From Escherichia phage vB_EcoM_OE5505: 64,000 nt of DNA. The translations under genes were made by a program, and so were the position numbers. The stretch is taken from sequence record NC_054926.1; one strand, written 5' to 3'. Below the pieces are notes generated by a model. That model was given only the letters and a program-made list of their open reading frames with translations. It made no database searches and was not told the DNA's origin. Positions 19,692-35,931 of the stretch are shown here, in pieces (position 1 is the stretch's first letter; each line of letters begins with the position of its first letter).

Positions 19692-19721
19692 ATAGTACCA
19701 CAGAGGAACGGTCTTGTAAAC
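19692..19721 (-). promoter_or_regulatory. Early promoter with conserved TGGTACTATACAACTATCAAC module (copy A)
   Basis: GTTTAC - 18 nt - TACTAT followed by conserved leader; one of four copies. Confidence 0.6.
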
Positions 19722-19723
19722 AA

Positions 19724-20026
19724 CTAAAAGAAACTTCTTTCACAATTTTTTCCACTGAACCACGCGCTCACTGCTTTCTTAGTCTCAGGAGCAGTGTTAT
19801 CCATAAACCATTCAAAGGCAGCCTTTTTATGATTCTGGAGGGCTTCTCGGGCTTTAATCTGCTCACGGTCTATTAACACTAACATATGAGCCTTTCTTGT
19901 CACCAGGGGCTTCTTATGATTTTTTGAATACTCCCAATCATTTGTCCATCGCATCGTTGTTGCGAACTGAAATACAGCTTCTTTAATTTTAGTTTCGTAA
20001 ATTTCACGAGCCTTTGAGTATAACAT
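19724..20026 (-). CDS. Hypothetical protein (100 aa)
   Basis: ATG at 20026 with GGAGG SD. Confidence 0.45.
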   Translation of the reverse strand: MLYSKAREIYETKIKEAVFQFATTMRWTNDWEYSKNHKKPLVTRKAHMLVLIDREQIKAREALQNHKKAAFEWFMDNTAPETKKAVSAWFSGKNCERSFF

Positions 20027-20127
20027 CACTACCTCCATTTACCAGTTTAATTCTAGTCATCTTTTTGATGGCAGTCCATATAATCTATTTCTGAACTGTC
20101 TTTTTGTCATAGAAGGCCTCTCATGAA

Positions 20128-21096
20128 TTATTTCAGAAGAGTAACCTCAGCGATTTCTTCCCAACCGTTTTTGTCGGTCATAATAAAGTCAGCAAGATAA
20201 AGTGCAGTACGCAGTGAAACATTGCGTAAACGATTAACATTGACTTTCATCCATGATAATGCTTTATAAGTTTCTTCATCAGAAAGACCGCGTTTTTGCA
20301 TCATGTCAGTTGAAAGAATAACATCTTCAACCCTGACCATAATTTCTTCATTAGTGTGAACACCCAAATCTAAATAAACTGAGCGGGACACTAATGCTTG
20401 TAAATGTGGAGCAAGTTTAGTACCACGATCTAATTCGCGGTCAATATCAACGTTTGTGATAAAAACAATCGTTCCTTTAAATTCAAACTCACGCTCAATG
20501 CCTTTTTCTTCTAAGTAAGAAGATGCGGTGCTCCAGCAGACTTTACGGGTCTCTCCGGTGTCCAGAGCAGCTTTCAGAAGATTAAGAATGTCCATATCAG
20601 AGAAAACATCCACATCATCAATCAAAAGGACAGAATTCTCTTCACGATTATTCCAAAGCTGTTCATAAAGACCGATACCAGAGATTTTACCATTAATGCT
20701 TTTATATTCAATGTATCCAATATCATTTGCTTTATTTAAAGCTTTATCTAAAGAATACGTTTTACCAATACCTGCCGCACCAGAGATAATTAATGAACGA
20801 ATGTTTCCGTTAATAATACCATTCGTCATCATTCCCATAACATTAAATCTTTTATTAATGCGGGTTTTCATATCTTCATACGATTCTTTAACTTCTTCAA
20901 CTTTTACACCATCATATGAAATGTCTGATTTGTAAACCCAAACACCGCGACGTTTACCGTCAATTTCAACAAAAACTTTACCATCTCCTTGTGCATCTAC
21001 CGGAGCATTATCTGGGAACCATTCGCCTAAGAGCTCAAAAGTTCCAGAGATTTCTTTACCGAAGTAGATACCCTTATTGATAGTTACAGTTTTCAT
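20128..21096 (-). CDS. P-loop NTPase (AAA-like), 322 aa
   Basis: Walker A GAAGIGKTYS, Walker B VLLIDDVD; ATG at 21096 with GGAG SD downstream of promoter 21131..21160. Confidence 0.6.
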   Translation of the reverse strand: MKTVTINKGIYFGKEISGTFELLGEWFPDNAPVDAQGDGKVFVEIDGKRRGVWVYKSDISYDGVKVEEVKESYEDMKTRINKRFNVMGMMTNGIINGNIRSLIISGAAGIGKTYSLDKALNKANDIGYIEYKSINGKISGIGLYEQLWNNREENSVLLIDDVDVFSDMDILNLLKAALDTGETRKVCWSTASSYLEEKGIEREFEFKGTIVFITNVDIDRELDRGTKLAPHLQALVSRSVYLDLGVHTNEEIMVRVEDVILSTDMMQKRGLSDEETYKALSWMKVNVNRLRNVSLRTALYLADFIMTDKNGWEEIAEVTLLK

Positions 21097-21130
21097 TTTA
21101 TTCTCCAAATCCGTATCAGTTGATAGTTGT

Positions 21131-21160
21131 ATAGTACCATAAAGCTTTATGCTTGTAAAC
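21131..21160 (-). promoter_or_regulatory. Early promoter with conserved module (copy B)
   Basis: Same -10/leader module as copy A. Confidence 0.6.
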
Positions 21161-21190
21161 AGTTTTGTGAAAAATTTTTGAAATAAAAAA

Positions 21191-21210
21191 AGGGAGCCCG
21201 AAGGCTCCCT
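21191..21210 (-). terminator. Rho-independent terminator (AGGGAGCC-UUCG-GGCUCCCU + U7)
   Basis: 8-bp GC-rich stem, UUCG loop, followed by TTTTTTTATTT on minus strand. Confidence 0.7.
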
Positions 21211-21211
21211 A

Positions 21212-22225
21212 TCATTTATAATAACTTCGGTGGTTTTCAAGATAGACCTTCTCAAGGAAGTCATCCCAGAAACTCATGTCTACTGTTTTAGGCATACCAT
21301 TCTTAGAAGCTTCAGTAGATGCTGCTTCTACTTGATCGACCACATCTTCCAAAAACTCTTGAACTGTTTTAAATGGATGTTTACCCAACTTCACGTCGAG
21401 AATAAATGGAGCATCTTGGAGTGGATAAATCAAGTCGCCAGTTTTGTAAATTTCCAATAGTTGAAGTCCACCACGACAAGCATGACTTAGTGCTTTCCAA
21501 TCAATACCTTCATTAGCTTCGGCCTTACGAGCACGTTCACCATATTCAGCATCTAATTTGTTCAGTGACTGCTTAAGCTCAATAAGAGAAAGCGTTGTCT
21601 GATATTTACGACCCAGCACTGTATAGAACGTTTGTGGACCTGTTTTCTCATGATTATGGAACACCCATTCACAGAATTCGTTTTCTGGAAGACGATGCTT
21701 AATATCTTCAACTTTAGTACGACGCTGCTTAATGGAACCGTCTTCTTGGTAATCAACCCATTGCTCAGGGATTTGATTAACTACTTTCAATACATCACGT
21801 AATGCAGCCAAACGAGAACCCTTGACGCCGTATTTAGAAGCTTGCTTGCGGACATATCCTAAATAGGATTTCATGTTAGTCGTATAAAAACGAGAACGGT
21901 TGTCTTGAATAAACTTCCACACATCAGGCAAATCAGATTTAACCACTAGTTCAGGTGGAGTGTGAAGCATATCCAATGCTACAGTTTCACCATCTGCTGC
22001 TAATTTAAAGAAATATTTAAGACTGTATAGTTCATGGTCAATATCATCTTTAGTGTTTTTAGATGATGTGTTGTTAGTGTTTTTACTCATGTGCTCTTTG
22101 ACATTTCCGATAAGAATATCACGAGCAGGAGGAACAAAAATTTCTTTAAAATCTACATCAGATTCTGGGGTAGAAGTTCCATAAAGATGACTACCAAAAT
22201 AGCTTTTCATTACTGTTTTCATCAT
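21212..22225 (-). CDS. Nucleotidyltransferase-fold protein (337 aa)
   Basis: N-terminal motif FGSHLYGTSTPESDVDF (GS-x10-DxD) typical of Pol-beta-like nucleotidyltransferases. Confidence 0.6.
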   Translation of the reverse strand: MMKTVMKSYFGSHLYGTSTPESDVDFKEIFVPPARDILIGNVKEHMSKNTNNTSSKNTKDDIDHELYSLKYFFKLAADGETVALDMLHTPPELVVKSDLPDVWKFIQDNRSRFYTTNMKSYLGYVRKQASKYGVKGSRLAALRDVLKVVNQIPEQWVDYQEDGSIKQRRTKVEDIKHRLPENEFCEWVFHNHEKTGPQTFYTVLGRKYQTTLSLIELKQSLNKLDAEYGERARKAEANEGIDWKALSHACRGGLQLLEIYKTGDLIYPLQDAPFILDVKLGKHPFKTVQEFLEDVVDQVEAASTEASKNGMPKTVDMSFWDDFLEKVYLENHRSYYK

Positions 22226-22692
22226 TCAGCCTTATATTCAATAACAGGACATACTTTAGCTTTACGAGCTTTTAAAAATTCAACGATAATCGATTTCTTG
22301 GGTTGAATAGGAGGTAAACCTTTATACGCCCTATCAATATTTTCTATGTGTAAAGCATAATCCTTTTTCCATTTATAATCTTTATAATCTTTATATTTTT
22401 CATGCAAATGCGCAGGAATAACAAATGAACCGATAATAAGTAAAACAACCAAAAGCGCAAGTATAAATGCTGATGGAAGAAGAGTCCATAAACTACCGAA
22501 AATAAGCCAACGTTGTAGGCTTTCTGCACAAATAATTGTTAGACCTGCGAGTATAGTACATCCGAAAAAAGAAACGAAAAATGTAGGGATAACAATAGAC
22601 CAAAAGTATGCACACAGTGTCTTAGGTCGTTTCCATTCGTCGTTAAACAGTTTGAATAATTTATAGTGCCAAGAGTTTTCATTAATAATCAT
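22222..22692 (-). CDS. Membrane protein (156 aa)
   Basis: Multiple hydrophobic segments; ATGA overlap with upstream gene. Confidence 0.55.
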   Translation of the reverse strand: MIINENSWHYKLFKLFNDEWKRPKTLCAYFWSIVIPTFFVSFFGCTILAGLTIICAESLQRWLIFGSLWTLLPSAFILALLVVLLIIGSFVIPAHLHEKYKDYKDYKWKKDYALHIENIDRAYKGLPPIQPKKSIIVEFLKARKAKVCPVIEYKAE

Positions 22693-22694
22693 AA

Positions 22695-23216
22695 TTATCC
22701 TTTCATTGAAGGTGTAACAGTTGTTAAATACTTAATCATAGCTTCAGCTTCTGATTTTGATAATGAAATTTCTTCATTGTTTTGACGAATAGAAATAAAA
22801 TCCGGATGACGGTCACCACCAGCTTTTAAAACACACATATAAGTATCAGCTTCGCCTTCAATATTTGAAATGATTGAAGCAGTTCCACATGAATGCGGTT
22901 TTTGATAAATCAATACAGCTTTTCTTCCACCATTTGACTGTTCATAGGCTTTTAATACATCAAGCAAATCAGTTCTTTTATCAATAGCTAAGATGTTATT
23001 TTCATCTTCAATATTAAATCCTTCGGATACTTCATAAAGAGTTACCCATAAATCACCGATGTCAATAACAGCATTTACTTTTCCACGGCTTTCAAGAGTA
23101 TGACAAATTTTCTTGATTTCGTCATAACTCATTTTAATAATATCATCTCCTTGACTAAGGAAGATGTCATTTTTAAATTCAACACGAATTAAACCACTTC
23201 CACTTGAAATAAACAT
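22695..23216 (-). CDS. Hypothetical protein (173 aa), paralogous to next gene
   Basis: Shares GFNIE and C-terminal YL..V.P.M motifs with 23223..23756. Confidence 0.5.
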   Translation of the reverse strand: MFISSGSGLIRVEFKNDIFLSQGDDIIKMSYDEIKKICHTLESRGKVNAVIDIGDLWVTLYEVSEGFNIEDENNILAIDKRTDLLDVLKAYEQSNGGRKAVLIYQKPHSCGTASIISNIEGEADTYMCVLKAGGDRHPDFISIRQNNEEISLSKSEAEAMIKYLTTVTPSMKG

Positions 23217-23222
23217 ATTTCC

Positions 23223-23756
23223 TCACTTTGAAATCATAATTGGAATGACAGAATCAAGATAAGTCTTTAGCGCAATAGCTTCGTCTTTGGTAAATGTGAC
23301 AATATGTGCTCGAAAATCGTCAATTTGACGAATAGATACTACATCTCCCTCTTCATAGCATTTTGACACATTTAAAATAGTTTCATCATTCTGATTGCAA
23401 GCGTTAGTAATAATAGCATTGCAATTTTTAAACCATTTTAAACTGTGTTTTCTTTCATTAGAATAATAAAAATATTTAATCTTATCTATAAAACTATCCC
23501 AATGGATAACTGATAAGCATATTGACTCGCTTTCAATATTAAATCCTGGGCATGAAGAATAAAAATGAATTTTATGCTCATCATTAATGCTTACAATTTT
23601 ATCAGTATAAGGATTTTCAATTTGGGTTAAATGAATGATTTCACTAGGCGTAAAATATAGCATATCGTCTTCTTGTGTCAAACGATACATATTATTTACT
23701 TTTTCTATAGCCAATTCACCAAAAAGTGAACTAACTTCTAATACTAATCGTTTCAT
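23223..23756 (-). CDS. Hypothetical protein (177 aa from ATG)
   Basis: ORF-track start GTG; ATG at 23756 with AAGGA SD. Confidence 0.5.
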   Translation of the reverse strand: MKRLVLEVSSLFGELAIEKVNNMYRLTQEDDMLYFTPSEIIHLTQIENPYTDKIVSINDEHKIHFYSSCPGFNIESESICLSVIHWDSFIDKIKYFYYSNERKHSLKWFKNCNAIITNACNQNDETILNVSKCYEEGDVVSIRQIDDFRAHIVTFTKDEAIALKTYLDSVIPIMISK

Positions 23757-23757
23757 A

Positions 23758-24024
23758 TTAATCCTTTTTATTGGCACGAATTTGTTCTAAAATTTTAGAG
23801 TATTCCTTTGTATCAGATTTACGTACAATCGATACACTATACGGCATACTATCGGTGTCTTTTATAAAGCGTTCCAAATGACACTCTAATAAAATTTCTG
23901 GATTATAAATCGTGTACATCAAATTACCTGTTGCTCCACGATATTGACAGATTTCTACTGATTGAACACCATTCCATAATTTTGTTAAGACCAAATCACC
24001 TACTTCTAATTTAGGAAAGCCCAT
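23758..24024 (-). CDS. Hypothetical protein (88 aa from ATG)
   Basis: ORF-track start TTG; ATG at 24024. Confidence 0.45.
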   Translation of the reverse strand: MGFPKLEVGDLVLTKLWNGVQSVEICQYRGATGNLMYTIYNPEILLECHLERFIKDTDSMPYSVSIVRKSDTKEYSKILEQIRANKKD

Positions 24025-24025
24025 G

Positions 24026-24211
24026 TTATTCACCAATTAAAGTTTCAATATAAGAATCAAGATTTACTTTAGCTTCTTCCATAAGAGTTTTGTATTTAAT
24101 CTTGTTAGCATGTCCGGAGAAAGCTGATTCATCAATAACTGTTGATGTATGAACAGCTCTACTATACGTCTCAATTAATTCTCTTAATTTAAAAGCCTGC
24201 TCACTTGTCAT
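24026..24211 (-). CDS. Hypothetical protein (61 aa)
   Basis: ATG start. Confidence 0.4.
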   Translation of the reverse strand: MTSEQAFKLRELIETYSRAVHTSTVIDESAFSGHANKIKYKTLMEEAKVNLDSYIETLIGE

Positions 24212-24343
24212 TACATACTCCTTTGAATCATATCAATAATATTGTTCACCAGATTATAGGTAAACATTGGGTAATTATATTGAATCATCACATATATAAC
24301 AAACAAAACTTTCATTCTCTTCTCCTTGACAGTTGACAAGATT

Positions 24344-24373
24344 ACTATACCATAACCTTGCCAACTTGTAAAC
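24344..24373 (-). promoter_or_regulatory. T4-type early promoter (GTTTAC - 18 nt - TGGTATAGT)
   Basis: Minus-strand motif in 24.2-24.4 kb intergenic region. Confidence 0.55.
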
Positions 24374-24375
24374 CG

Positions 24376-24549
24376 TTAAATGTTGTTTTCAATAAAATTC
24401 TGAAGCTTTGTGTGAGCATCAACCATGATTTTCATTTCTTCTTTGGCGAAAGCTGTACCTCTTTCCCGAGAAGAACACTCATAGTCAGAAACTGCATTAG
24501 CATATTCTTCAATTAGCTTCATTAAAAACATCTGCTTTTCAGTTTTCAT
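24376..24549 (-). CDS. Small hypothetical protein (57 aa), below threshold
   Basis: ATG at 24549 overlapping upstream stop. Confidence 0.3.
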   Translation of the reverse strand: MKTEKQMFLMKLIEEYANAVSDYECSSRERGTAFAKEEMKIMVDAHTKLQNFIENNI

Positions 24550-24733
24550 TATTCCACCTAATCATTTCAAGATATTGAACTAACTTAGCTTTAGATTTAT
24601 CCAAATCCTTTTTAGCTGCTTCTATACCATCGTATGAATATCCTTCACAATGCTCAACTGCTAATTGATATGAATCTATTTCAATATCACGTGCTAATTT
24701 AATGATTTTTTCAAACTGTTCGCGTGTTAGCAT
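24539..24733 (-). CDS. Hypothetical protein (64 aa)
   Basis: ATG start. Confidence 0.4.
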   Translation of the reverse strand: MLTREQFEKIIKLARDIEIDSYQLAVEHCEGYSYDGIEAAKKDLDKSKAKLVQYLEMIRWNNEN

Positions 24734-24735
24734 AC

Positions 24736-24939
24736 TTACACTCTCGTATTATGATCGATAATTTCATCAAGAAACATATCTAACGCTTCTATAGCATTAT
24801 CCACTTTAGTTTCAAAGTCTTTAATGCCTTTATTCGAAATACCCGATGAATACCAAGCAAAGTCAATCAGCTCTTCATCTGCTTTACGAATTAAAGCTAC
24901 CAATTCCTTAATTTTATCTGCTTGTTCAATTCTAGTCAT
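24736..24939 (-). CDS. Hypothetical protein (67 aa from ATG)
   Basis: ATG at 24939. Confidence 0.4.
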   Translation of the reverse strand: MTRIEQADKIKELVALIRKADEELIDFAWYSSGISNKGIKDFETKVDNAIEALDMFLDEIIDHNTRV

Positions 24940-25127
24940 TATTCCACCACATATGAAAGAGAGAATATTGCACACGCCATATGAGTTGCAGCTTCATCAC
25001 ACATATCATAACGTTTCTTAAGAAGTTCTACAAGTTCTTCACTAGTAACTTCATCCATGTCGACGAAAAAATCACCATTAATGATGACGTAGATATTTCC
25101 TTCTTGATTAAGTGCTTCAATTTTCAT
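24939..25127 (-). CDS. Hypothetical acidic protein (62 aa from ATG)
   Basis: ATG at 25127 with GAGGAG SD; upstream ORF-track extension is promoter read-through. Confidence 0.4.
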
Positions 25128-25155
25128 GATGTTCTCCTCTTTATTCGATGGTTGT

Positions 25156-25185
25156 ATAGTACCACAGCTCAAACGGAAAGTAAAC
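25156..25185 (-). promoter_or_regulatory. Early promoter with conserved module (copy C, slightly diverged)
   Basis: GTTTAC - 18 nt - TGGTACTATACAACCATC. Confidence 0.55.
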
Positions 25186-25200
25186 CGGTAAAATGAAAAA

Positions 25201-25218
25201 AGTCTCCCGAAGGAGACT
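25201..25218 (-). terminator. Rho-independent terminator (AGUCUCC-UUCG-GGAGACU + U5)
   Basis: Stem-loop followed by TTTTTCATTT on minus strand. Confidence 0.65.
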
Positions 25219-25222
25219 AATG

Positions 25223-25609
25223 TTATTCGAGGGAAAGAAGATATTTACTCTGGTAAAACATCCCAGTAATATCATCTATCGTGCTTTGAATGGCTGGAGG
25301 CATTTCTTTATAAATGCTGTTAGATTGGTCTAGTATGCGATCAATCATTTTAATTGTGTCGGTAGGAAGTTTACTGGCATCTGGAATAGAAGGCGTGTAT
25401 TTTCTACCAGAATACCCCAAATATTGCTCACCAAATTTATCAATCAAATCTGGCAACTCAGAGAAAATAAAATCGTATGCTTTGTGTCTAGCATAACTTT
25501 TAGTTTCAAAATGCGCAGAATGAAAATAAGCTTGTGCAGCCATTAATAAACCTAAGTATTCATCTGCCTTTGAAGGTTTTCCACTTTGTGAAAAGTCGCT
25601 GAATTTCAT
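25223..25609 (-). CDS. Hypothetical protein (128 aa), rI-adjacent
   Basis: ATG start, ATGA overlap with rI stop; UUCG terminator hairpin after stop. Confidence 0.55.
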
Positions 25610-25899
25610 TCAGTCTCCAATTTAATGTTCATAATTCTAGCGTATGATTGTGCCATCTCCGCGCCTCGCTCTATACATTCAAAATCGGAAGAGCACGGGT
25701 CATTTTTATAAGTCGTTCGCATAAAACTATAGAACTGTTCAGATGATTCTACGCTTTTGTTTTCAAAAAGCATATAAACGTGTCTAATACCAGATTCCAT
25801 AAATTTATCAAAATGAGGATCGACATTCGCTTCAATTGGTGGAGATAAAGCAAACGCTAATCCTAGCATGGCAAATAGTTCCGTTGCTTTTAAGGCCAT
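25606..25899 (-). CDS. rI: Lysis inhibition regulator rI
   Basis: 97 aa; N-terminal signal-anchor MALKATELFAMLGLAFALSPPIEA; sequence matches recalled T4 rI. Confidence 0.85.
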   Translation of the reverse strand: MALKATELFAMLGLAFALSPPIEANVDPHFDKFMESGIRHVYMLFENKSVESSEQFYSFMRTTYKNDPCSSDFECIERGAEMAQSYARIMNIKLETE

Positions 25900-25911
25900 A
25901 AAGGCCTCCTA

Positions 25912-26124
25912 TCATTTTTGTCCTGTATTTACTTTATGCCGATGCACGGCCTTAACTTTATCAAGGTATTTTTCAAAATTTCGCAATCTAGTATAGTCTG
26001 CCGGAGATTGGTTGAGTGATACTTCTCGACGCAAAGCTGAAATGATATTTCCAACTTCCCTACGAATTTCATCTAATTGAAGAACAGTAAGATTGCGAAG
26101 TTGCTTTTCAGTTAATTGTAGCAT
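25912..26124 (-). CDS. Hypothetical protein (70 aa)
   Basis: ATG start between tk and rI. Confidence 0.5.
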
Positions 26125-26166
26125 ATATACCCCTTTAGTTAGATAAACCTATTTATAACTTTTGCA

Positions 26167-26748
26167 CTAACCGAGCTTTTTAGTTAATTCATTCCAATGT
26201 TTTCTACACAAAGAAACATAAATTTCATCACCAATACAGATTTGATTACCTTCTTTAACTGGTGTTCCATCTTCCGTTAATCGAGCTGTCATAATCGCTT
26301 TTTTACCGCAATGACAAACCGCCTTTAGTTCAATAAGTTTATCTGCAATCGCTAAAAGTTCTTTAGAACCTTCAAACAATTTTCCAGCGAAATCAGTCCT
26401 TAATCCATAAGCCATAACAGGAACATTATATGTATCAACAATTCGACTTAATTGATGCACCTGTTCAGTTTTTAAAAACTGGGCTTCATCTACAAATACG
26501 CAATGAATATCTTTTTGTGCTTCAGCCCATTTATAGAACTCGAAAATATCCATATCATCTGTAATAATATTCGCTTCCTGTTTAATTCCAATGCGAGAAA
26601 CAACTTCACAGACAGAATCGCGAGTATCAATAGCGGGTTTAAGAACTAATACACTCATTCCACGTTCTTTATAATTATGTGCGGCAGTCAAAAGAGAAGC
26701 AGATTTTCCAGCATTCATTGCTGCATAAGTAAAAATTAAACTCGCCAT
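26167..26748 (-). CDS. tk: Thymidine kinase
   Basis: 193 aa; P-loop AAMNAGKSASLL; C-terminal Zn motif CHCGKKA...CRKHW; matches recalled T4 Tk. Confidence 0.95.
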   Translation of the reverse strand: MASLIFTYAAMNAGKSASLLTAAHNYKERGMSVLVLKPAIDTRDSVCEVVSRIGIKQEANIITDDMDIFEFYKWAEAQKDIHCVFVDEAQFLKTEQVHQLSRIVDTYNVPVMAYGLRTDFAGKLFEGSKELLAIADKLIELKAVCHCGKKAIMTARLTEDGTPVKEGNQICIGDEIYVSLCRKHWNELTKKLG

Positions 26749-26757
26749 ATCACCTTC

Positions 26758-26943
26758 TTAAAGCGTATTCACATAAGCTATTAATTCGTTTTCTTTCTTA
26801 TCAAACCGATCAGCAAATTCTTCTTGCTGATCGGGAGATAGCGGGCCGTATTCATCATAAAAGGTGTTTGCTTCTGTATGCTCATCTAGAAGTTCATGGA
26901 TAAGCTCAAACAATTTATCTTTTTGTTCTTTACTCAGACTCAT
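26758..26943 (-). CDS. Hypothetical acidic protein (61 aa)
   Basis: ATG start. Confidence 0.45.
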   Translation of the reverse strand: MSLSKEQKDKLFELIHELLDEHTEANTFYDEYGPLSPDQQEEFADRFDKKENELIAYVNTL

Positions 26944-27113
26944 ATATTAATTTCCAGGAGTTTTAAAATAATTCGCTTTTGCTTAAATATTTCCATAGTT
27001 AAATGACCAGTATCTTTTTGACCGATTCCAATGGCAAAACCTTTATTGACAGCGAGTTCAATTAAATTATCAAGCTCACGTAACACTTCATACTGTAACT
27101 CAAAACTATTCAT
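26940..27113 (-). CDS. Small hypothetical protein (57 aa), below threshold
   Basis: ATG at 27113; stop overlaps next start (ATGA). Confidence 0.3.
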   Translation of the reverse strand: MNSFELQYEVLRELDNLIELAVNKGFAIGIGQKDTGHLTMEIFKQKRIILKLLEINI

Positions 27114-27322
27114 TTCGGTTTACCTTCTTTAACGAAATCAGGATAAGGATAAAATCCTGAATAAAATCCTTCACCTTTATGATTGATGCATCCTTTATTA
27201 GAACAATAGCACCAATAATCGAAATCACAAGCCATTTCATCATTACATAAAGCAAAAACAACTGGCCATTCACACTTTTCGCAGTGGGCATTTTTAAGAA
27301 TACTAGTTTGGCTCATAACCAT
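27110..27322 (-). CDS. Cysteine-rich small protein (70 aa from ATG)
   Basis: 10 Cys incl. CEKCEW, CYCSNKGC; ORF-track start TTG. Confidence 0.4.
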   Translation of the reverse strand: MVMSQTSILKNAHCEKCEWPVVFALCNDEMACDFDYWCYCSNKGCINHKGEGFYSGFYPYPDFVKEGKPK

Positions 27323-27525
27323 GTAACCTTTAAACAATATTCTTCTACATGTTGTTTACGACCTTTCCTATCAATAAAGGTATATTCAACGAATGTTCCA
27401 ATATAGTCTTTATCTACATCATGTGGACTATTAATTGGGCATTTAGTACGGCAAATGCGTTCCCATTGACGAATAATTTCCACTTTGTTTTTAGGATCAA
27501 ACGGATGCGGGTAATGTACTTTCAT
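27313..27525 (-). CDS. Hypothetical protein (70 aa)
   Basis: ATG start; Cys/His-containing. Confidence 0.4.
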   Translation of the reverse strand: MKVHYPHPFDPKNKVEIIRQWERICRTKCPINSPHDVDKDYIGTFVEYTFIDRKGRKQHVEEYCLKVTWL

Positions 27526-27976: not shown

Positions 27977-28314
27977 CTAGTACTCAATCCTCGATTATAA
28001 GAATCTACTAAACGGTCAACCATTGAATGACAAGCGGCTTTATCTTTCTCCTCCGCAACTGAACATTCTAAGGTATTCCACTTTTTAGCATATCGTTTTA
28101 ACAATGTATCATTTTTGTATCTGCTTGATTTATCTCTTTCTCCGTCTTTATATGCATATATTAATTTCTGCGCAAATTCAGCTTGGCATGCTTTATTTTT
28201 CCCGCAATAATCCGCTGCAGTACGGTTTACATACTCTCTAATTTCAGTATATGATGTATCTGCTAACACAGAAAATGAAATTAATCCTATACATAAAACC
28301 AAAATTTTAGTCAT
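27973..28314 (-). CDS. Secreted/periplasmic protein (113 aa)
   Basis: N-terminal signal peptide MTKILVLCIGLISFSVLA; 4 Cys in mature part. Confidence 0.5.
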   Translation of the reverse strand: MTKILVLCIGLISFSVLADTSYTEIREYVNRTAADYCGKNKACQAEFAQKLIYAYKDGERDKSSRYKNDTLLKRYAKKWNTLECSVAEEKDKAACHSMVDRLVDSYNRGLSTR

Positions 28315-28852
28315 TTACTATTTCCAAAAGTTTATTATTTTTAAGGTAATTAGCCTTTTCTAGGACTTCAGAAGCATATTTAGAACCTGCTTTAACATTC
28401 CATCCCGAATTATAAGATGATATTGCTTTTCTTATATCACCCTTATGTATATTTAACCAATAAGAAAGTTCAATGTACGCCCAGGAAGCTGAATTGGACC
28501 GTTTATTCAACATTCTTTTTATTTCAGCATCGGTCATATTATAACCAAGTTCCTTGACTCTCGCTCGCATAGTAGGCAAATAATTTTGGAACATTCCATA
28601 GGCATGATGCTTTGGTTTAGATTTTAAATTAACTCCGGCAGAGCTTTCTTGCCACAAAATAGCAGCCATTATATGACCTAATCCGCTCTTATGGATGTTT
28701 TTGTGTGTTTTATATTTTCCATCCTTAGAAAATTGTTCCCCGAATTGATACGCGTAACGCATGTTATCGAGTTGGACATTACTGAAAGTATGCTCGGAGC
28801 TATGTGCCATCATTGAAATGGCCAATAGACCAGCGAGTAGTGCTTTTCTCAT
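28307..28852 (-). CDS. Secreted lytic transglycosylase-like protein (SLT domain), 181 aa
   Basis: Signal peptide MRKALLAGLLAISMMAHS; SLT-type motif MAAILWQESSAG...YGMFQ. Confidence 0.6.
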   Translation of the reverse strand: MRKALLAGLLAISMMAHSSEHTFSNVQLDNMRYAYQFGEQFSKDGKYKTHKNIHKSGLGHIMAAILWQESSAGVNLKSKPKHHAYGMFQNYLPTMRARVKELGYNMTDAEIKRMLNKRSNSASWAYIELSYWLNIHKGDIRKAISSYNSGWNVKAGSKYASEVLEKANYLKNNKLLEIVND

Positions 28853-28859
28853 GCTTACC

Positions 28860-29321
28860 TCATTGAGTTTTAATTACTGCTTTAGAAGCCTTTCCTGGTA
28901 AACGACGACTATTGATAATTGCCATCCTGCATTGAAGCGACGGGTCTTTGAACTTCGCATTAGGTTTACAAACTGTAAATCCAAGCCAAAGATTTCCATC
29001 TGTGATTTCTAAACGTCCAGGACGGTATTCAACCCCATCAATAAAATCCTCATCAATGTCAGGACGCGGAGGCATACTCAGGAATTCATTAACTTCTAAA
29101 ACATGGTCTTTTATTTTGTGGAATAATTCAAAAACATATGTCTCATCAATCTCCCGTTGAATTGCACGATCAAGAAGATGTTGAGAATATTTTAGATGAA
29201 ACGATGAGACCCCTGCTGCTTTTGATGCCTCACGAATCTCATTGTTAATTTGACGAAACTCCGACTCAAAGTGACGACGAAGCTTATTTCGACGGATAAA
29301 AACTTCTGTATTGATAGTCAT
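28860..29321 (-). CDS. regB: Endoribonuclease RegB
   Basis: 153 aa; MTINTEVFIRRNKLRRHFESEFRQINNEIREA... matches recalled T4 RegB; early promoter directly upstream. Confidence 0.85.
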   Translation of the reverse strand: MTINTEVFIRRNKLRRHFESEFRQINNEIREASKAAGVSSFHLKYSQHLLDRAIQREIDETYVFELFHKIKDHVLEVNEFLSMPPRPDIDEDFIDGVEYRPGRLEITDGNLWLGFTVCKPNAKFKDPSLQCRMAIINSRRLPGKASKAVIKTQ

Positions 29322-29348
29322 GTTATTCTCCTCTTAACTGATAGAAAA

Positions 29349-29378
29349 ATTATACCACAGTCAAGAGGAAAAGTAAAC
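29349..29378 (-). promoter_or_regulatory. T4-type early promoter upstream of regB (GTTTAC - 18 nt - TGGTATAAT)
   Basis: Minus-strand consensus match. Confidence 0.65.
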
Positions 29379-29380
29379 AG

Positions 29381-29659
29381 TTATTCTTTAAATCTAATCA
29401 ATTTATTCATAGACTTTGAAACTTCTGCACGAACCTCATGTAGATTTTTGAGCTGTTCAAGACGCTGCGTATAGTAAGCAATTTCATCTTCTTCGAGACA
29501 GTCCTGTGAATCTTCTTTAAGATACCGTGCATAGTCCTGGAAAGCGTTACGGACTACTTCCTGGAAGTCATCAAGACTTTGAATTTTCTTAGGAGCAGCA
29601 GACACACGACGAGGGGCAGTATAATACTCATAACCAAACCCTGCGCTTAATTGAGCCAT
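29381..29659 (-). CDS. Hypothetical protein (92 aa from ATG)
   Basis: ORF-track start GTG; ATG at 29659 with GAGGAAA SD. Confidence 0.45.
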
Positions 29660-29925
29660 TAGTATTTTTCCTCTGGTTGGAACACAGCACGACAAGCCCA
29701 CATACTGGCTTCTTTGAGTTTCGTTTTAGCAATAGCTAACTGATCGAGGCTTTCAGCATAATTCTTCGCGAGTTCAAAGTCTTCGCAATCGTCCCACGCT
29801 TCCCAGAATTCATCATATAAAGCATCAAAGATAAGTCCTAAACGAACTTCAGCGTCTTTAATAGCATTTACTTTACCGATTTTTTCGTCGGTATGTGGTT
29901 TATAACCCTTAATATCTTCAATCAT
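29659..29925 (-). CDS. Hypothetical acidic protein (88 aa from ATG)
   Basis: ORF-track start TTG; ATG at 29925 with GAGGAAG SD. Confidence 0.45.
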
Positions 29926-30139
29926 ATTTGACTTCCTCACCAGTGCATAAATCGTATTCAACTAAACGAATAGGTTCATGAATGCCATATCCCTGAACAG
30001 AAATTTCTGTCGTAGGATAAATTCCATCAATATCACCCATATTCCAGGCTTCATTAAATTGCTGTTCGCCTGAATTACTAAACCACTCGGCGAAAGCATT
30101 TAGCACATCTTCAGAACCTTCAATAATTATCTTTGCCAT
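29918..30139 (-). CDS. Hypothetical acidic protein (73 aa)
   Basis: ATG start. Confidence 0.45.
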   Translation of the reverse strand: MAKIIIEGSEDVLNAFAEWFSNSGEQQFNEAWNMGDIDGIYPTTEISVQGYGIHEPIRLVEYDLCTGEEVKYD

Positions 30140-30501
30140 TACAAACTCTCGGTAAAGGTACGAGCGATAACGTCGCGCTGCTGTTCCGGAGTCAGAGAGT
30201 TAAAGCGAACTGCATAACCGGATACACGGATGGTCAGCTGCGGATATTTTTCCGGATGCTTAACTGCATCTTCCAGAGTTTCACGACGCAGAACGTTAAC
30301 GTTCAGGTGTTGACCACCTTCAATTTTAACTGTAGGCTGTTGCTCAATTTCAATTTCACGGGCATGCAAACCATAGAAAATTTCTGGGTCTACAAAAGAG
30401 TCCTCTTTAAAGGTTTTAGAAACGATAATTCGTGCTTGAATACCATCTTCAAAATAAATAGTGCCTTTGTGTGTGCCTTCAAGAATTTGATATGCTTTCA
30501 T
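30139..30501 (-). CDS. Autonomous glycyl-radical cofactor (GrcA/YfiD-like)
   Basis: C-terminal ~50 aa [59 protein letters not shown] essentially identical to E. coli GrcA; glycyl radical motif RVSGY; a T4 homolog (Y06I) is known. Confidence 0.9.
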
Positions 30502-30508
30502 ATAAACC

Positions 30509-30889
30509 TCAATTAGAAAATAAATTTATCCAAGATTGTTCTTTAATTAAAAACGGCTCAGAATCATATGCCATTAAACTTTGCGTAATTAATCCTTTAA
30601 AAGGTCCATCAATAAATTCCATGGTAAAATACGGAATTTTATTCATTAATCTTGCATTAGGAGCAGTGCACAAAACTCTGCATCCTTTGAATACACCTTT
30701 TTGTAATTTGTATTGCTTGGGATAAAATTCGCTCAAAATGTTATTATTTGCTAAAATTTCAAAATGATTCACCAATTTATTTTTAATAGTTTTTGGCGAA
30801 AAATAAAGATATTCGAAAAGCTGAGTGTCTGTCATCATTGCATTCCGATTACGAAAAACTGTGGACGAGTAATACCACCAATGCAACAT
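30509..30889 (-). CDS. Hypothetical protein (126 aa)
   Basis: ATG start. Confidence 0.45.
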
Positions 30890-31422
30890 TTACTATTGCA
30901 GCAGTGTTGCACAGTTTCAATATGAATATCGTAAATTTTATCCATATCAGGAGATTTAACAGGCTCATCAATTATATACAAAATTCGTGAAAGCGATAAA
31001 CCTCTGAACTTGCTTCCTTTATTACCAATAAAACTGCGCACAGAATCAGTAAATAAACGAAAACGTATATCATCATTAGAATAACGCGAAAATTCCTTTT
31101 TAATGTTATTTGCAGAAATTTTAGCGTAAGCTGAAGTATTAGAAAGAACAATAACTGTTCCGCCATCATACAACCAATTAGCAGCGAAGTTAGTCACAGC
31201 AATTGATTTACCGGATTGACGTCCACCATCTAGTCGAAGTGTGCAATACTGTTTAAGTAAGTCTTCAAATGGTGGGATATAATCGTTTTTACAAATTTCT
31301 TCTACTCTAGCATCAGAATGGTGTGTAAAAGCATTCATCAGGGATAGATAAGGACCAGTTAAAAATGTTCTCATTTTATTCTCTCTAAATTTGGGCCATT
31401 CCATGGCGCATGAATTGTCCAT
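30835..31422 (-). CDS. P-loop protein (195 aa), unknown function
   Basis: Walker A-like GGRQSGKS; ATG start. Confidence 0.5.
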   Translation of the reverse strand: MDNSCAMEWPKFRENKMRTFLTGPYLSLMNAFTHHSDARVEEICKNDYIPPFEDLLKQYCTLRLDGGRQSGKSIAVTNFAANWLYDGGTVIVLSNTSAYAKISANNIKKEFSRYSNDDIRFRLFTDSVRSFIGNKGSKFRGLSLSRILYIIDEPVKSPDMDKIYDIHIETVQHCCNSKCCIGGITRPQFFVIGMQ

Positions 31423-31527
31423 TTCTGTATTTACCCATTACCGCACTCAGGCTCGACCTTATTACAGGTTGGCGGGAATCCCTCATAGAATCATGAGGTC
31501 CAGTTTGTTCCCATATTTCTTATTTGC

Positions 31528-32001
31528 TTATTTGAACGATTTAACGTACTGAATAGAACCTTTACTATTTACAAAGGCAATTTTACCATTTTTATTATAC
31601 ATTGTAGCAGTACGTTGATAGCCATAAGTTTGTTTACCAGATTGATAACCAACTAATGCAAAATTATCTTCACCCATTTTATTCTGTTTAGCGCGAATGC
31701 GTTCATGACCATGTGCCATAAGAACCTTAGCATCACCAGTTGCAATGGATCGACGAGTTTTTTCATCTTCAACTGTATTAACAAAGTCGTCAAATGAATC
31801 AAATTTAGCATGAGATTTATTATACAGTTTTCCATCTACTGCATAATTATATCCCTGTACATCCATCTCAACTTCTGTACCATCATCCAATACAGCAGTA
31901 ATTTTTTGACCTTTTTTAAATTTCAAAAGATCAGTAAAAGATTCAGCAATAATTTGAGAATTAATAGCTGCTTCAGTGATAAATTCTTGATATGTTTTCA
32001 T
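31528..32001 (-). CDS. Internal (capsid-targeted) protein, ipIII-position (157 aa)
   Basis: N-terminal capsid targeting sequence MKTYQEFITEA; located immediately upstream of e as ipIII is in T4; early promoter 32056..32085. Confidence 0.7.
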   Translation of the reverse strand: MKTYQEFITEAAINSQIIAESFTDLLKFKKGQKITAVLDDGTEVEMDVQGYNYAVDGKLYNKSHAKFDSFDDFVNTVEDEKTRRSIATGDAKVLMAHGHERIRAKQNKMGEDNFALVGYQSGKQTYGYQRTATMYNKNGKIAFVNSKGSIQYVKSFK

Positions 32002-32055
32002 ATGTTTCCTTTAAATATTTTAATTAGTAATTTGTCTCTTCAAGCAACTGTGAAT

Positions 32056-32085
32056 ATACTATCACAATTCTAGGAGAAAGTAAAC
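32056..32085 (-). promoter_or_regulatory. Early promoter upstream of internal protein gene (GTTTAC - 18 nt - TAGTAT)
   Basis: Minus-strand motif. Confidence 0.5.
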
Positions 32086-32089
32086 AACT

Positions 32090-33058
<969 letters not shown>

Positions 33059-33077
<19 letters not shown>

Positions 33078-33547
33078 TCAGTGATAAAGTTATTTAAATT
33101 TTGAGTATATTTCTTTTCATCAAAAATCTTTTGTTGTCTGCGTAGCCGCCATGGCATTTCAATGAACGTGTACCATATCCCAGATAATATTGATGCTGTA
33201 AAAATATTAACAAGTATGGTTAAAAGAATCCAATCTCCTATTCTGTCCATTGGATTTTTTATAAAAAAGTAAAATACGAATGATGACACAGGAAGACTAA
33301 TGATATACCACAGAAGAGCCTTCTTATCTGTGAACCAATCAGCATTCGTTAACTTAGCGCGACCGTTTTGAATACATACGAACTTATCATCTGTTACAGT
33401 AAATGGCTTAGCTGCTTGATATCCCATTCTAAACTCCCTAATCAACAAATTTTTCATATCTTCGGAACAACCATTCCAGTCAACTCTATCAACTGAAATG
33501 CCATCATCCCCATCATCTAAATCATACCAGCGAGTTTTTAAAATCAT
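33059..33547 (-). CDS. Membrane protein (162 aa)
   Basis: Two hydrophobic helices (LLWYIISLPVSSFVFYFFI, WILLTILVNIFTASILSGIWY). Confidence 0.5.
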
Positions 33548-33906
33548 TTAATTTTCCTACAATCACTCACAAACTCTTCCATTGATTCTTTTTCAATATA
33601 AGACATATAGCTATTATATTCCTTTAATTGTATTTTGTAATCCTTTTTTCTTTGCCAATTTATTTTAAAATTATCATAATGAAAATATAACATGGTACCA
33701 AAGAATGAAAATAATGAAATCGCTATAGTAAAACGAAGTTCACTCCAAACCTCTGTTATAATTACTGTGCCGTCGATATTTAAAATAAAACAGTCAATTA
33801 ACAATCCAATAAGACTACCCGCAAGAGCTGTAAATACTGATACAGCAAGAATTAATAGTGCCTCAGGAAACGAATATTTGACTTTATTTAGTTTTGGCTT
33901 TTGCAT
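33544..33906 (-). CDS. Membrane protein (120 aa)
   Basis: Two hydrophobic helices; ATGA overlap. Confidence 0.5.
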   Translation of the reverse strand: MQKPKLNKVKYSFPEALLILAVSVFTALAGSLIGLLIDCFILNIDGTVIITEVWSELRFTIAISLFSFFGTMLYFHYDNFKINWQRKKDYKIQLKEYNSYMSYIEKESMEEFVSDCRKIK

Positions 33907-34280
33907 CGTGATTCCTTAACAAATTTCATAATTTCATCAAATTCATACATATCTAGCTTAAGCTGGTGTTCCTTTTTAATCTTTTTACACTGAGCTTTCC
34001 AATCACGTACACGTTTACGATAATGTCTTCCTTGATACCAGTATCCTACCCAATTTACGGGTACTAATAAAAGTGGAACTATTAATGGAAGAATTAGCAT
34101 TAACACAAGTATTTCGCCAGAATCAATATCAGTCATAACATCTAAAACACCTCCAATAATCAATAGAATTACAAATGATATGAGTATAACAGGACCTATT
34201 AACACATCAGTAGAAATTATCTGACGCTTTGGTTCATACTTCACAGGTTTACTTGGAAGGTATAGTGATGGTTTTGACAT
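33888..34280 (-). CDS. Membrane protein (130 aa from ATG)
   Basis: ORF-track start TTG; ATG at 34280 with AAGGAA SD; two TM helices. Confidence 0.5.
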   Translation of the reverse strand: MSKPSLYLPSKPVKYEPKRQIISTDVLIGPVILISFVILLIIGGVLDVMTDIDSGEILVLMLILPLIVPLLLVPVNWVGYWYQGRHYRKRVRDWKAQCKKIKKEHQLKLDMYEFDEIMKFVKESRCKSQN

Positions 34281-34857
34281 ATTCTCTACATTCCTTAACA
34301 AATTTTTCTAGTAATAAATCACTTTCAAAATTGGGATTTTCTACAAATTTATCAAAAAGATCATCAACAATATTCAAGATATTTCTTTTACTAAGAATAC
34401 GTTTATTTTCATGCTTCGTTTCAGAATCAACTATAAGAGTAAAGAAATATTTCTTTCCCTGAAATTTTACTGTAGTATCAATATAGAATAAATTTGACTT
34501 TTGTAAATTACGTTTAAACCATGCGTCACTTAAACTATAAACACCGAGATAATCAAAATCGTCGTTTAAATAACAAACCGTCCATTCAGGAGAAATGAAA
34601 TCAGTAAATTCAACATCAAAATCACACGTCAATGAATGAATTGATTCAATACTGTTAATGAGTATTCCAGGACGTATTAAAGACTTTTTACCTCTAGAAA
34701 ATCTTCCGGAAAGGCTTTCATCAGTTTCATATGAAGACCCCCAATAGTAATTACGTCCTTCTGCCATGCGTTTAAGAGCATTTAGTAATTGGTCTGGAAC
34801 ATCAACCTGTCTTTGAAACTCTTCAAACATTGAATTGAAATCACTTTGCATTTTCAT
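34249..34857 (-). CDS. Hypothetical protein (202 aa)
   Basis: ATG start. Confidence 0.5.
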   Translation of the reverse strand: MKMQSDFNSMFEEFQRQVDVPDQLLNALKRMAEGRNYYWGSSYETDESLSGRFSRGKKSLIRPGILINSIESIHSLTCDFDVEFTDFISPEWTVCYLNDDFDYLGVYSLSDAWFKRNLQKSNLFYIDTTVKFQGKKYFFTLIVDSETKHENKRILSKRNILNIVDDLFDKFVENPNFESDLLLEKFVKECREYVKTITIPSK

Positions 34858-34877
34858 TCCTATTTACTCCAAGTAAT

Positions 34878-34894
34878 AGGGGCCCGAAGCCCCT
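34878..34894 (-). terminator. UUCG-tetraloop hairpin (AGGGGC-UUCGG-GCCCCU)
   Basis: Inverted repeat after stop of 34900..35493. Confidence 0.45.
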
Positions 34895-34899
34895 TATCA

Positions 34900-35493
34900 T
34901 TATTTCAGAGAATTAATATATTCCTGAACATCGGCAGAGGTAGTTTCAACCCCAGAAATATTACCATTAAAGGTTTCAACTCGAGCAAGAGTATCTTCAA
35001 TATCAACCTTAGTCAGTGCTGCAATTTCAACTACATCATCAGCAGTACTAATTCCAAGGGCATTCGCTGCACGAGTTTCACGGATATATTCCAATTTAAC
35101 CGCAAGTTCTTGACGAGCATCATCTAACTCAACTACTTTCTTGGCGATTTCAATTCGCATTTCAGCATAACCGTCAGCCTTAGTAGTCAACTGCTCAGCT
35201 GTTCGACGATATAGTAAACCGAGTTTAGCATGCATTGTTACATCTTGGCCTTCGGAAAGAAGTTTACGAATTTCACGCTCTTTTGATTCGGCCTGTCGAT
35301 TCTTTTCGATAACAAGTTCACGAATACGTTTTTCTTCGTTAATAGATTTAACAGAAGCAGTTTTTAGATCTTTAATTTTATCAAGTAGTTTTGCTGCTGC
35401 AGCAGTATACTGTTCTTCGACAGATAGATTTTTAGCCATAGCAGAACCAAGTTTAGTGCGAATAAACTCAACAATTTTCTTCAGTGTGTTCAT
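34900..35493 (-). CDS. Coiled-coil protein, PspA/IM30-like (speculative), 197 aa
   Basis: Long helical heptad-rich sequence reminiscent of PspA family; early promoter 35565..35594; UUCG hairpin after stop. Confidence 0.45.
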
Positions 35494-35564
35494 AGTATTT
35501 CCTTAGGTTAATTGAGATTTAAAATCCGTAGGAGTATAATACTCTATCGTCAAATTATAGGCTC

Positions 35565-35594
35565 ATAATATCTCAATCATGAGCCTGCGTAAAC
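35565..35594 (-). promoter_or_regulatory. Early promoter (GTTTAC - 18 nt - TATTAT)
   Basis: Minus-strand motif; spacer contains inverted repeat GCTCAT...ATGAGC. Confidence 0.5.
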
Positions 35595-35858
35595 TTATTT
35601 CATATTATTGAAATATTCTTCTGCGATTTCGTCGTTATCATGGTAAACTTTAGAAGACAGTTTAACATAACCTTCTGCTGTGAACATATTAATCACAACT
35701 TTTACAGTATACCACTGACCGTCTTCATTACCCATTACTGCGTAAGTTTCAAACATCGGATGATCAGGACCGATAACTTTAATATCATTCACTGTACGAC
35801 CGAAATCTTCTGAAACGCATTTCATAAAGAAGTTGAACAGTTCGCCGTAATTATCCAT
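35595..35858 (-). CDS. Hypothetical protein (87 aa from ATG)
   Basis: ATG at 35858 with GGAG SD; ORF-track N-terminal extension is promoter read-through. Confidence 0.5.
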   Translation of the reverse strand: MDNYGELFNFFMKCVSEDFGRTVNDIKVIGPDHPMFETYAVMGNEDGQWYTVKVVINMFTAEGYVKLSSKVYHDNDEIAEEYFNNMK

Positions 35859-35901
35859 TTCATTCTCCAAGTTGTTTTCTGTATCAGTAGTTGATAGTTG
35901 T

Positions 35902-35931
35902 ATAGTACCATGGAAGAACAGAGATGTAAAC
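35902..35931 (-). promoter_or_regulatory. Early promoter with conserved module (copy D)
   Basis: GTTTAC - 18 nt - TGGTACTATACAACTATCAAC. Confidence 0.6.

Follow-up and report, generated by a model that had tools for sequence, protein, structure and literature searches.

Four dispersed sites in Escherichia phage vB_EcoM_OE5505 as probable members of a T-even early-promoter cassette family

The window analyzed (64,000 nt of Escherichia phage vB_EcoM_OE5505, NC_054926.1) comes from a T4-like phage genome (Tequatrovirus) and matches T4 positions 32.3-96.9 kb at 86-98% identity. The 21-mer TGGTACTATACAACTATCAAC is present on the minus strand in three exact copies, and a fourth copy (25144-25164, minus strand) reads TGGTACTATACAACCATCGAA, with 3 mismatches; the number of matches to TGGTACTATACAACTATCAAC expected by chance was 0 (100 shuffles). 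The copies lie in the early promoters of the orthologs of T4 nrdC.8, nrdC.10, mobD.5 and e.8, referred to below as sites 1 to 4 (Table 1). The exact blocks of sites 1 and 2 form direct repeats that lie 1,439 bp from each other. An earlier note on this DNA had described a near-identical module at four dispersed sites, in intervals that correspond exactly to GTTTAC-N18-TACTAT on the minus strand. The dispersed repeat was borne out as three exact copies and one near copy, near-identity holding for sites 1, 2 and 4 and failing at site 3, which is clearly diverged.

The downstream genes encode proteins of 175, 322, 62 and 87 aa, as had been reported, and the P-loop attributed to the 322-aa protein is present as a Walker-A motif. 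These genes had been called unrelated, and no relatedness was found when the four proteins were compared. No credible family match was found for the 175-, 62- and 87-aa proteins, and the 322-aa NrdC.10 ortholog returned AAA matches below threshold only. The nrdC.8 promoter (T4 ortholog at 53943/53922) is without an upstream terminator, the stop codon of nrdC.9 abutting its -35, and is followed by a leader of 22 nt from +1 to the ATG with the Shine-Dalgarno sequence GGAGG. Upstream of the nrdC.10 promoter lies an intrinsic-terminator hairpin AGGGAGCCTTCGGGCTCCCT with a T-run (21210-21191), continued toward the -35 by the A/T-rich, UP-like tract TTTCAAAAATTTTTCACAAAACT. The mobD.5 promoter retains TGGTACTATACAAC unchanged and then reads CATCGAA. 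The hairpin upstream of the e.8 promoter borders a 1.2-kb stretch (36079-37294) for which T4 has no counterpart.

Table 1. Promoters, genes and associated elements at the four sites (positions in the window)
Feature	Position	Strand	Details
nrdC.8 ortholog early promoter	19680..19721	-	-35 GTTTAC 19721-19716
nrdC.8 promoter, extended -10/-10 TGGTACTAT	19700-19692	-	exact block 19700-19680
nrdC.8 promoter, predicted +1	19685	-	
nrdC.8 ortholog, 175 aa	19136..19663	-	synteny with T4 nrdC.8
nrdC.10 ortholog early promoter	21119..21160	-	-35 21160-21155, -10 21136-21131
nrdC.10 promoter, predicted +1	21124	-	exact block 21139-21119
Terminator hairpin and UP region before nrdC.10 promoter	21161..21210	-	
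nrdC.10 ortholog, 322 aa	20128..21096	-	Walker-A GAAGIGKT
mobD.5 ortholog early promoter, diverged member	25144..25185	-	-35 25185-25180, -10 25161-25156
mobD.5 promoter, predicted +1	25149	-	
Terminator hairpin AGTCTCCTTCGGGAGACT and T-run	25201..25218	-	directly upstream of mobD.5 promoter
mobD.5 ortholog, 62 aa	24939..25127	-	
e.8 ortholog early promoter	35890..35955	-	-35 35931-35926, -10 35907-35902
e.8 promoter, UP-like tract AAAAATTTTTTCACAAAACT and predicted +1	+1 at 35895	-	exact block 35910-35890
e.8 ortholog, 87 aa	35595..35858	-	37-nt leader with TTGGAGAATGAAATG
Hairpin and T-run	36061..36079	-	~130 nt upstream of e.8 promoter

The -35 GTTTAC is exact at all four sites and is followed at equal spacing by the extended -10 and -10 sequence TGGTACTAT; in the T4 catalogue, 36 of 38 early promoters have an extended -10 and TAnnnT at the same distance from the -35. 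With TACTAT taken as the -10, the start site is predicted, by transfer from T4, to be the A of ATCAAC. The promoter features of the deposited T4 annotation X75802 end at this A, and the imm.1 promoter unit starts at the same base (T4 map position 27,044; PMC6024815). On this assignment the block TGGTACTATACAACTATCAAC would span -16 to +6, comprising the extended -10 TGn, the -10 hexamer, the discriminator and the start site, and only its last 6 nt would enter the transcript. Positions +1 to +7 are common to sites 1, 2 and 4, and the earlier proposal that the first ~15 transcribed nucleotides are common thus shrinks to 6-7 nt. The spacers had been said to differ, which did not hold as stated: over the 14 nt compared, the spacers of sites 1 and 4 are 57% identical, and spacer types recur in T4. 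The likeness of sites 2 and 4 reaches beyond the block originally described, to a common upstream sequence AAAATTTTT(T)CACAAAACT and a common leader pattern, ...CTGATAC.G...TTGGAGAAT.AAATG; the A/T-rich tract upstream of the -35 is weaker at sites 1 and 3 than this sequence at sites 2 and 4. A scan with a generic sigma-70 consensus returned 82 sites against 75 expected and was not discriminating in this AT-rich DNA.

T4 carries six exact copies of the 21-mer genome-wide, at the same three loci and at imm.1, motA and ndd.6, and diverged copies at frd.3, mobD.5, denV, cef, ndd.4 and trna.4. The 110-nt e.8 cassette matched 4097 places in 550 phage records, typically 7-9 per genome. When the 21-mer with ACAAC was sought in JS98-type genomes none was found; these genomes carry TAYTATAGACCTATCAA, a version with AGACC, at 12-13 sites.

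The cassettes are mosaics, sharing UP, spacer, core or leader segments with one another. In T4, the nrdC.10 and frd.3 promoters agree at every base between the terminator T-run and +3 inclusive (spacer 14/14) and diverge thereafter; imm.1 shares its leader (0.96) but not its spacer (0.29) with ndd.6, and its spacer (1.00) but not its core with ndd.4. Cassettes also change beside unchanged genes: NrdC.10 proteins that are 99-100% identical have three different cassettes upstream (L027/L029, L030, L028), and NrdC.8 is 100% identical in L078 but its promoter core is altered to TATTATTACCC. At the three shared loci, paralogous promoters are more alike than orthologous promoters of different genera, both in the core (0.92 vs 0.80) and in the spacer (0.62 vs 0.35). 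Indels relative to T4 (the e.7 indel and the 1.2-kb insertion) are bounded at cassette edges. The mosaic sharing between non-orthologous promoters, the swaps beside nearly identical proteins and the excess of paralog over ortholog identity all favor the earlier suggestion that promoter cassettes have spread by recombination. Because different cassettes occupy one locus and JS98-type phages carry AGACC, the comparison indicates that recombination and concerted evolution have operated in addition to the constraint set by RNA polymerase; in principle, selection for an optimum particular to each lineage could produce the same pattern as concerted evolution.

The four sites are thus probably members of a dispersed T-even early-promoter cassette family, kept alike by polymerase constraint together with exchange. 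Each cassette would provide a strong promoter recognized by the sigma-70 RNA polymerase of the host. A terminator hairpin and an A/T-rich UP-like tract often lie upstream of it, and downstream comes a short leader, predicted to be unstructured, that carries a GGAG-type ribosome-binding site. If T4 is a guide to timing in this phage, the cassettes would fire immediately after infection, each serving the gene that opens a small early transcription unit. Comparison shows the positions of polymerase contact (TGn, TA...T, A at -6 and TATCAA near +1) to be conserved in most early promoters and across genera. Exchange between cassettes, presumably by homologous recombination or short-patch gene conversion, probably homogenizes the C of TACTAT, the CAAC at -5 to -2 and some of the spacer, UP-tract and leader sequence within a lineage.

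The earlier note had itself named the observation that would count against a special family, namely that the block is the general early-promoter consensus, and this is true of much of it but not of the CAAC at -5 to -2. The comparison was made against 29 non-family T4 early promoters, taken from a catalogue that was defined by pattern rather than by experiment, since GenBank record AF158101 is without promoter features, and in which a few entries may be wrong. In this set the block base was found at frequencies of 0.83 for T-15, 0.90 for G-14, 1.00 for T-12, A-11 and T-7, 0.62 for A-6, 0.69 for T-1 and 0.62 for A+1 and A+5, and of only 0.21 for C-10 and 0.03 for C-5. The general consensus accordingly takes in TGn, TAnnnT, the A at -6 and, around the start site, TATCAA, and the C of TACTAT and CAAC at -5 to -2 are specific to the family. 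That the block carries the majority base of the non-family promoters at about two thirds of its positions, and that the TATCAA start motif is kept in distant genera, fits a reading in which there is no family and selection has converged at every position. This reading is improbable given the rarity of C-5 and C-10 in other T4 early promoters, the discreteness of the exact copies (the six in T4 score 12/12 at -6 to +6, above a continuum of 2-10), the mosaic sharing of unconstrained spacers, UP tracts and leaders, and the occurrence of AGACC instead in JS98-type phages, which infect the same host.

The last of these observations also bears on the possibility, raised in the earlier note, of a co-regulated subset. 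A separately regulated early sub-class that includes motA, recognized either by a phage factor or by polymerase that Alt/ModA has modified and showing distinct kinetics or shut-off as a result, would account for 21 nt being invariant in six T4 copies, and some T4 early promoters respond to Alt and others do not, the mechanism of early shut-off being unknown (PMC2988021). It is nevertheless highly unlikely: the bases at -5 to -2 vary between genera with a common host, in a sister phage the same gene can be preceded by a different cassette, no candidate for a binding factor emerged, and published T4 time courses (RNA-seq and proteome data, of a resolution too low to tell subsets apart) place these genes in the early class, as they do neighbors on other early promoters. 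A more specific version, also decidedly doubtful, would make the core from -16 to +6 the mark of a distinct immediate-early sub-class including motA, its discriminator and initial transcribed sequence giving a specific response to Alt/ModA-modified polymerase or to early shut-off, and the ACAAC (T4-like) and AGACC (JS98-like) versions having co-evolved in their genera. The suggestion that the shared sequence acts in the RNA, a common 5' end setting processing or stability through a 5' hairpin or an RNase site, is extremely unlikely. All four leaders (22-37 nt, ending in a GGAG-type Shine-Dalgarno sequence and ATG) begin with AUC, and their Shine-Dalgarno regions carry the motif targeted by RegB, GGAG; however, GGAG is also present in five non-family leaders of the window, the transcribed part of the block is only 6-7 nt, and the family leaders differ beyond +7 and are predicted to be no more structured than shuffled controls (z -0.3 to +1.7). 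A candidate 5' hairpin AUCA...UGAU was rejected: its energy was marginal, sites 1-3 lack it, and it did not outperform shuffled controls.

Set against known systems, the family of cassettes is ordinary for T4-like phages and has already been described, as T4 early promoters and as PeSLs. The window sites are direct orthologs of T4 early promoters, a class that includes those of motA, imm.1 (Pe26.4), nrdC.8, nrdC.10 and e.8, and agree with their T4 counterparts in locus, -35 GTTTAC, TGn, -10, start site and 21-mer. Nothing essential differs: a few bases are substituted in spacer, UP tract and leader, and at site 3 a single base of the block is not that of T4. T4 early promoters consist of UP, -35, TGn and -10 elements with additional consensus regions (PMC2988021), and the classical consensus statements rest on that work and PMC1524935. 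PeSL cassettes and their recombination have been described in RB49/phi1 and T4/PST (Arbiol 2010, Comeau 2014; PMC2839356, PMC4122927), those of T4/PST being reported with TTTACW..N17..TAYWAT; their crossovers have been placed in the interval from the -10 to the ATG, and recombination between copies, which in PeSLs produces mini-circles, shuffles ORFs. Like PeSLs, the window family combines an AT-rich tract, an early promoter, a Shine-Dalgarno sequence and ATG, in part with a terminator stem-loop, and has many dispersed copies in variable regions. The hairpin and T-run lie directly upstream only at sites 2 and 3, being ~130 nt upstream at site 4 and missing at site 1, which therefore falls short of the complete PeSL layout. 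Inverted repeats flanking the -10 in other early promoters were considered as a new feature and set aside, PeSL subclasses with stem-loops overlapping the -10 having already been described.

Beyond annotation the significance is small, these being orthologs of long-known T4 early promoters, and the results fit the published view that promoter/terminator cassettes drive early genes and serve, in variable regions, as hot spots of recombination. A single modest point is added, a clear genus-specific homogenization of the promoter core (ACAAC vs AGACC), stressed here and not spelled out in the PeSL papers, which separates bases required by the polymerase from those merely travelling with the cassette. 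The block can be used as a precise marker of early transcription units in Tequatrovirus genomes. It also produces false N-terminal extensions in ORF calls; the spurious GTIQLST extensions pointed out in the earlier note are real, at 19, 55, 14 and 39 aa, the one at site 3 reading GTIQPSN instead. The internal-protein (IP) loci of T-even phages are flanked by conserved promoter elements (Repoila 1994, as cited in PMC2839356), with T4-type early promoters and AT-rich stem-loops bracketing variable small genes in the account given there. IP-type promoters are present in the window at 41060, 41358 and 41689; in promoters of this type an inverted repeat surrounds the -10 and the core is of the TACCC type, whereas the family described here has the ACAAC block.

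The 21-mer TGGTACTATACAACTATCAAC (the block) lies exactly at the early promoters of the nrdC.8, nrdC.10 and e.8 orthologs (sites 1, 2 and 4) and with three mismatches at that of the mobD.5 ortholog (site 3); no copies were expected by chance (100 dinucleotide-preserving shuffles). The four-site repeat described in an earlier note is real, its intervals corresponding exactly to GTTTAC-N18-TACTAT. The proteins encoded downstream (175, 322, 62 and 87 aa, sites 1-4) are unrelated, as the note held: no family was credibly matched by the 175-, 62- and 87-aa proteins, and the 322-aa protein carries a Walker-A motif, with AAA matches below threshold only. The false ORF-track extensions containing GTIQLST are also present, reading GTIQPSN at site 3.

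Positions of features in the window and, where indicated, their T4 counterparts
Feature	Position	Strand or source
Early promoters, sites 1, 2, 3, 4	19692-19721, 21131-21160, 25156-25185, 35902-35931	minus
Block, exact (sites 1, 2, 4)	19680-19700, 21119-21139, 35890-35910	minus
Block, diverged (site 3)	25144-25164	minus
-10-flanking inverted repeats	41031-41060, 41329-41358, 41660-41689, 35565-35594, 32056-32085, 24344-24373	minus
Replacement of e.7 and following promoter	35509-35556 (T4 69921-70321)	
Stretch upstream of e.8 cassette	36079-37294	
Identical terminators of 1.2-kb region	36745-36768, 37303-37326	minus
Homing-endonuclease gap regions	22226-23198, 10304/10284, 11580/11583, 37634-39041	window-T4 alignment

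The window belongs to a Tequatrovirus. Over a 7-kb segment many T4-like phages match it at 97-98% identity, and its full length corresponds to T4 32.3-96.9 kb (86-98% identity), interrupted by scattered indels. Alignment gaps suggest that the window lacks, or has replaced, several of T4's homing-endonuclease regions (mobC, I-TevII, and the mobD and segB areas). The T4 orthologs of the four genes are nrdC.8, nrdC.10, mobD.5 and e.8; the exact 21-mer precedes all but mobD.5, which has a diverged copy, so the block is inherited and not special to vB_EcoM_OE5505. The genome-wide motif search proposed in the note found six exact copies in T4 (imm.1, nrdC.8, nrdC.10, e.8, motA and ndd.6) and diverged copies at frd.3 (2 mismatches), cef and denV (3), mobD.5 and ndd.4 (4) and trna.4 (5).

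T4 record X75802 (ndd.6 and ndd.4 promoters) annotates TACTAT as the -10 signal and ends the promoter feature on the A of ATCAAC. The same A is T4 map unit 27,044, where a primer-extension/RNA-seq paper (PMC6024815) places the start of the imm.1 promoter (Pe26.4) unit. The block therefore spans -16 to +6, and only ATCAAC is transcribed, not the first ~15 nucleotides as had been claimed. Positions +1 to +7 are common to sites 1, 2 and 4; between sites 2 and 4 the similarity continues further into the leader, broken by a 3-nt indel.

Early promoters were catalogued by pattern (38 in T4, 15 in the window); 29 of those in T4 are not members of the block family. The possibility that the block is simply the general early consensus holds at most positions: among these 29, the block base has a frequency of 1.00 at T-12, A-11 and T-7, 0.83 at T-15 and A-8, 0.90 at G-14, 0.62 at A-6, A+1 and A+5, 0.69 at T-1 and 0.59 at T+2, with -4 to -2 unremarkable. 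It fails at C-10 (0.21) and C-5 (0.03). Over -6 to +6 the six exact T4 copies match at 12/12, two promoters at 10, four at 8 and the others along a continuum of 2-7, and only three of the window's 15 early promoters carry the exact block. From these frequencies, scores and counts, the block combines a core rich in consensus bases with a few bases specific to the family. Consensus regions beyond UP, -35, TGn and -10 have been described for T4 early promoters (PMC2988021; PMC1524935).

A separate regulatory role for the exact core is unlikely, and no result of the analysis points to one. A shared RNase or stability determinant might be sought in GGAG, the RegB motif, found in each of the four leaders, but the window has it in five non-family leaders too; the leaders are predicted to be unstructured (0 to -4.7 kcal/mol, z -0.3 to +1.7 against shuffles), and the short transcribed part of the block likewise argues against this reading. 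A candidate AUCA/UGAU 5' hairpin was marginal, absent from sites 1-3, and rejected. As for a co-regulated subset, a T4 time course in the literature assigns nrdC.8, nrdC.10, e.8, imm.1 and motA to the early class in RNA and protein and mobD.5 in RNA, but gives neighbours behind other early promoters the same class; at its resolution no subset is set apart.

Spread of promoter cassettes by recombination, also suggested in the note, is supported by mosaic segments, by differing cassettes beside near-identical proteins and by paralogs more alike than orthologs. When 13 window and T4 cassettes are aligned, shared segments recur in differing combinations. The nrdC.10 and frd.3 cassettes agree at every base from the terminator's T-run to +3, a stretch taking in the UP tract, spacer (14/14) and core, and differ beyond it; motA has the same upstream tract as frd.3 but another spacer, imm.1 and ndd.4 share the spacer with different cores, imm.1 and ndd.6 the leader and first codons and not the spacer, and nrdC.8 and ndd.4 the leader. 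The spacers, described as different in the note, fall into recurring types across T4. The polymerase does not read spacers base-specifically, so identical spacers at non-orthologous promoters point to copying, not convergence. The imm.1 (T4 27080) and ndd.6 (T4 167086) cassettes have their first four codons in common (ATGAAAATCGCT, M-K-I-A) before otherwise different small membrane proteins; cassette exchange can therefore reach into the coding start.

NrdC.10 proteins of 99-100% identity lie behind three cassettes: the block family (loci L027 and L029), a type reading GGGTA...TACTAT...TACCC (L030) and one with TATAGT and an inverted repeat of its own (L028). At another locus (L078) NrdC.8 is 100% identical and the core is TATTATTACCC, with flanks unchanged. 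JS98 (recognised by a 100% match) and its relatives have TA(C/T)TAT-AGACC-TATCAA at nrdC.8, e.8 and most nrdC.10 loci, where the spacer is shorter by one base; GGACC stands in place of AGACC in some nrdC.10 orthologs of this group. TAYTATAGACCTATCAA occurs 12-13 times per JS98-type genome. The ACAAC 21-mer was not found in the JS98-type genomes searched, and has 3-6 copies in near-complete Tequatrovirus-type contigs. For the three loci that both groups have, identity among paralogs of one genome exceeds that of orthologs between the groups (0.92 versus 0.80 in the core, 0.62 versus 0.35 in the spacer), a pattern that points to concerted evolution. The bases that both groups keep (TGn, TAYTAT, TATCAA) are likely functional, and those that differ (-5 to -2, spacer) likely hitch-hiking. 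A 110-nt e.8 cassette query matched 4097 places in 550 phage records, typically 7-9 per genome, essentially all in T-even phages of enterobacteria.

The block sites are a family of T-even early-promoter cassettes, real but ordinary. Their near-identity probably comes from constraint by the polymerase together with copying by recombination from one dispersed site to another. Both processes have been described before, and the promoters here are orthologous to known T4 promoters; the one small novelty is a homogenised core specific to each genus, ACAAC versus AGACC.

The region is enriched in terminator-like sites (22 observed vs 9.0 +/- 3.4). An intrinsic-terminator hairpin and T-run directly precede the UP tract at sites 2 and 3, and at site 4 a hairpin is about 130 nt upstream; site 1 has no upstream terminator hairpin, since its -35 is touched by the nrdC.9 stop codon. 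Apart from site 1, these terminators and the indel edges fit the published anatomy and behaviour of promoter-early stem-loop (PeSL) cassettes, for which crossovers have been mapped from the -10 to the ATG; PeSLs are also on record for the T4/PST pair (PMC2839356, PMC4122927). In the window about 46 nt stand in place of T4 e.7 and the promoter after it; one breakpoint follows closely on the start region of the upstream promoter, and the other immediately precedes the e.6 Shine-Dalgarno. Directly upstream of the e.8 cassette, 1.2 kb without T4 counterpart holds small ORFs and a near-identical pair of terminator hairpins (AGCCCCGACCGAAAGGTTGGGGCT plus T-run) at a distance of 558 bp; it resembles two inserted gene modules in tandem. 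Distant nrdC.10 orthologs (L055-L059, 61-68% identity) have, about 60 nt before the gene, a hairpin followed by a T-run, with the -35 GTTTAC in or beside the loop (for example AAAAGGACT GTTTACTTAGC AGTCCTTTT), so terminator and promoter are superimposed.

Most non-family early promoters have an inverted repeat with arms either side of the -10 hexamer (spacer arm vs -6 to +14 arm), the arm sequences varying between promoters. Perfect repeats of 6 bp or more occur in 16 of the 29 non-family T4 promoters, against 7% when partners are mismatched (P about 2e-11); in the block family they reach only 3-4 bp. Stem-loops that overlap the -10 are already known from PeSL subclasses (PMC2839356). In two ortholog comparisons these repeats contain sense-strand G-T, a hint that read-through transcripts may form a hairpin at the RNA level.
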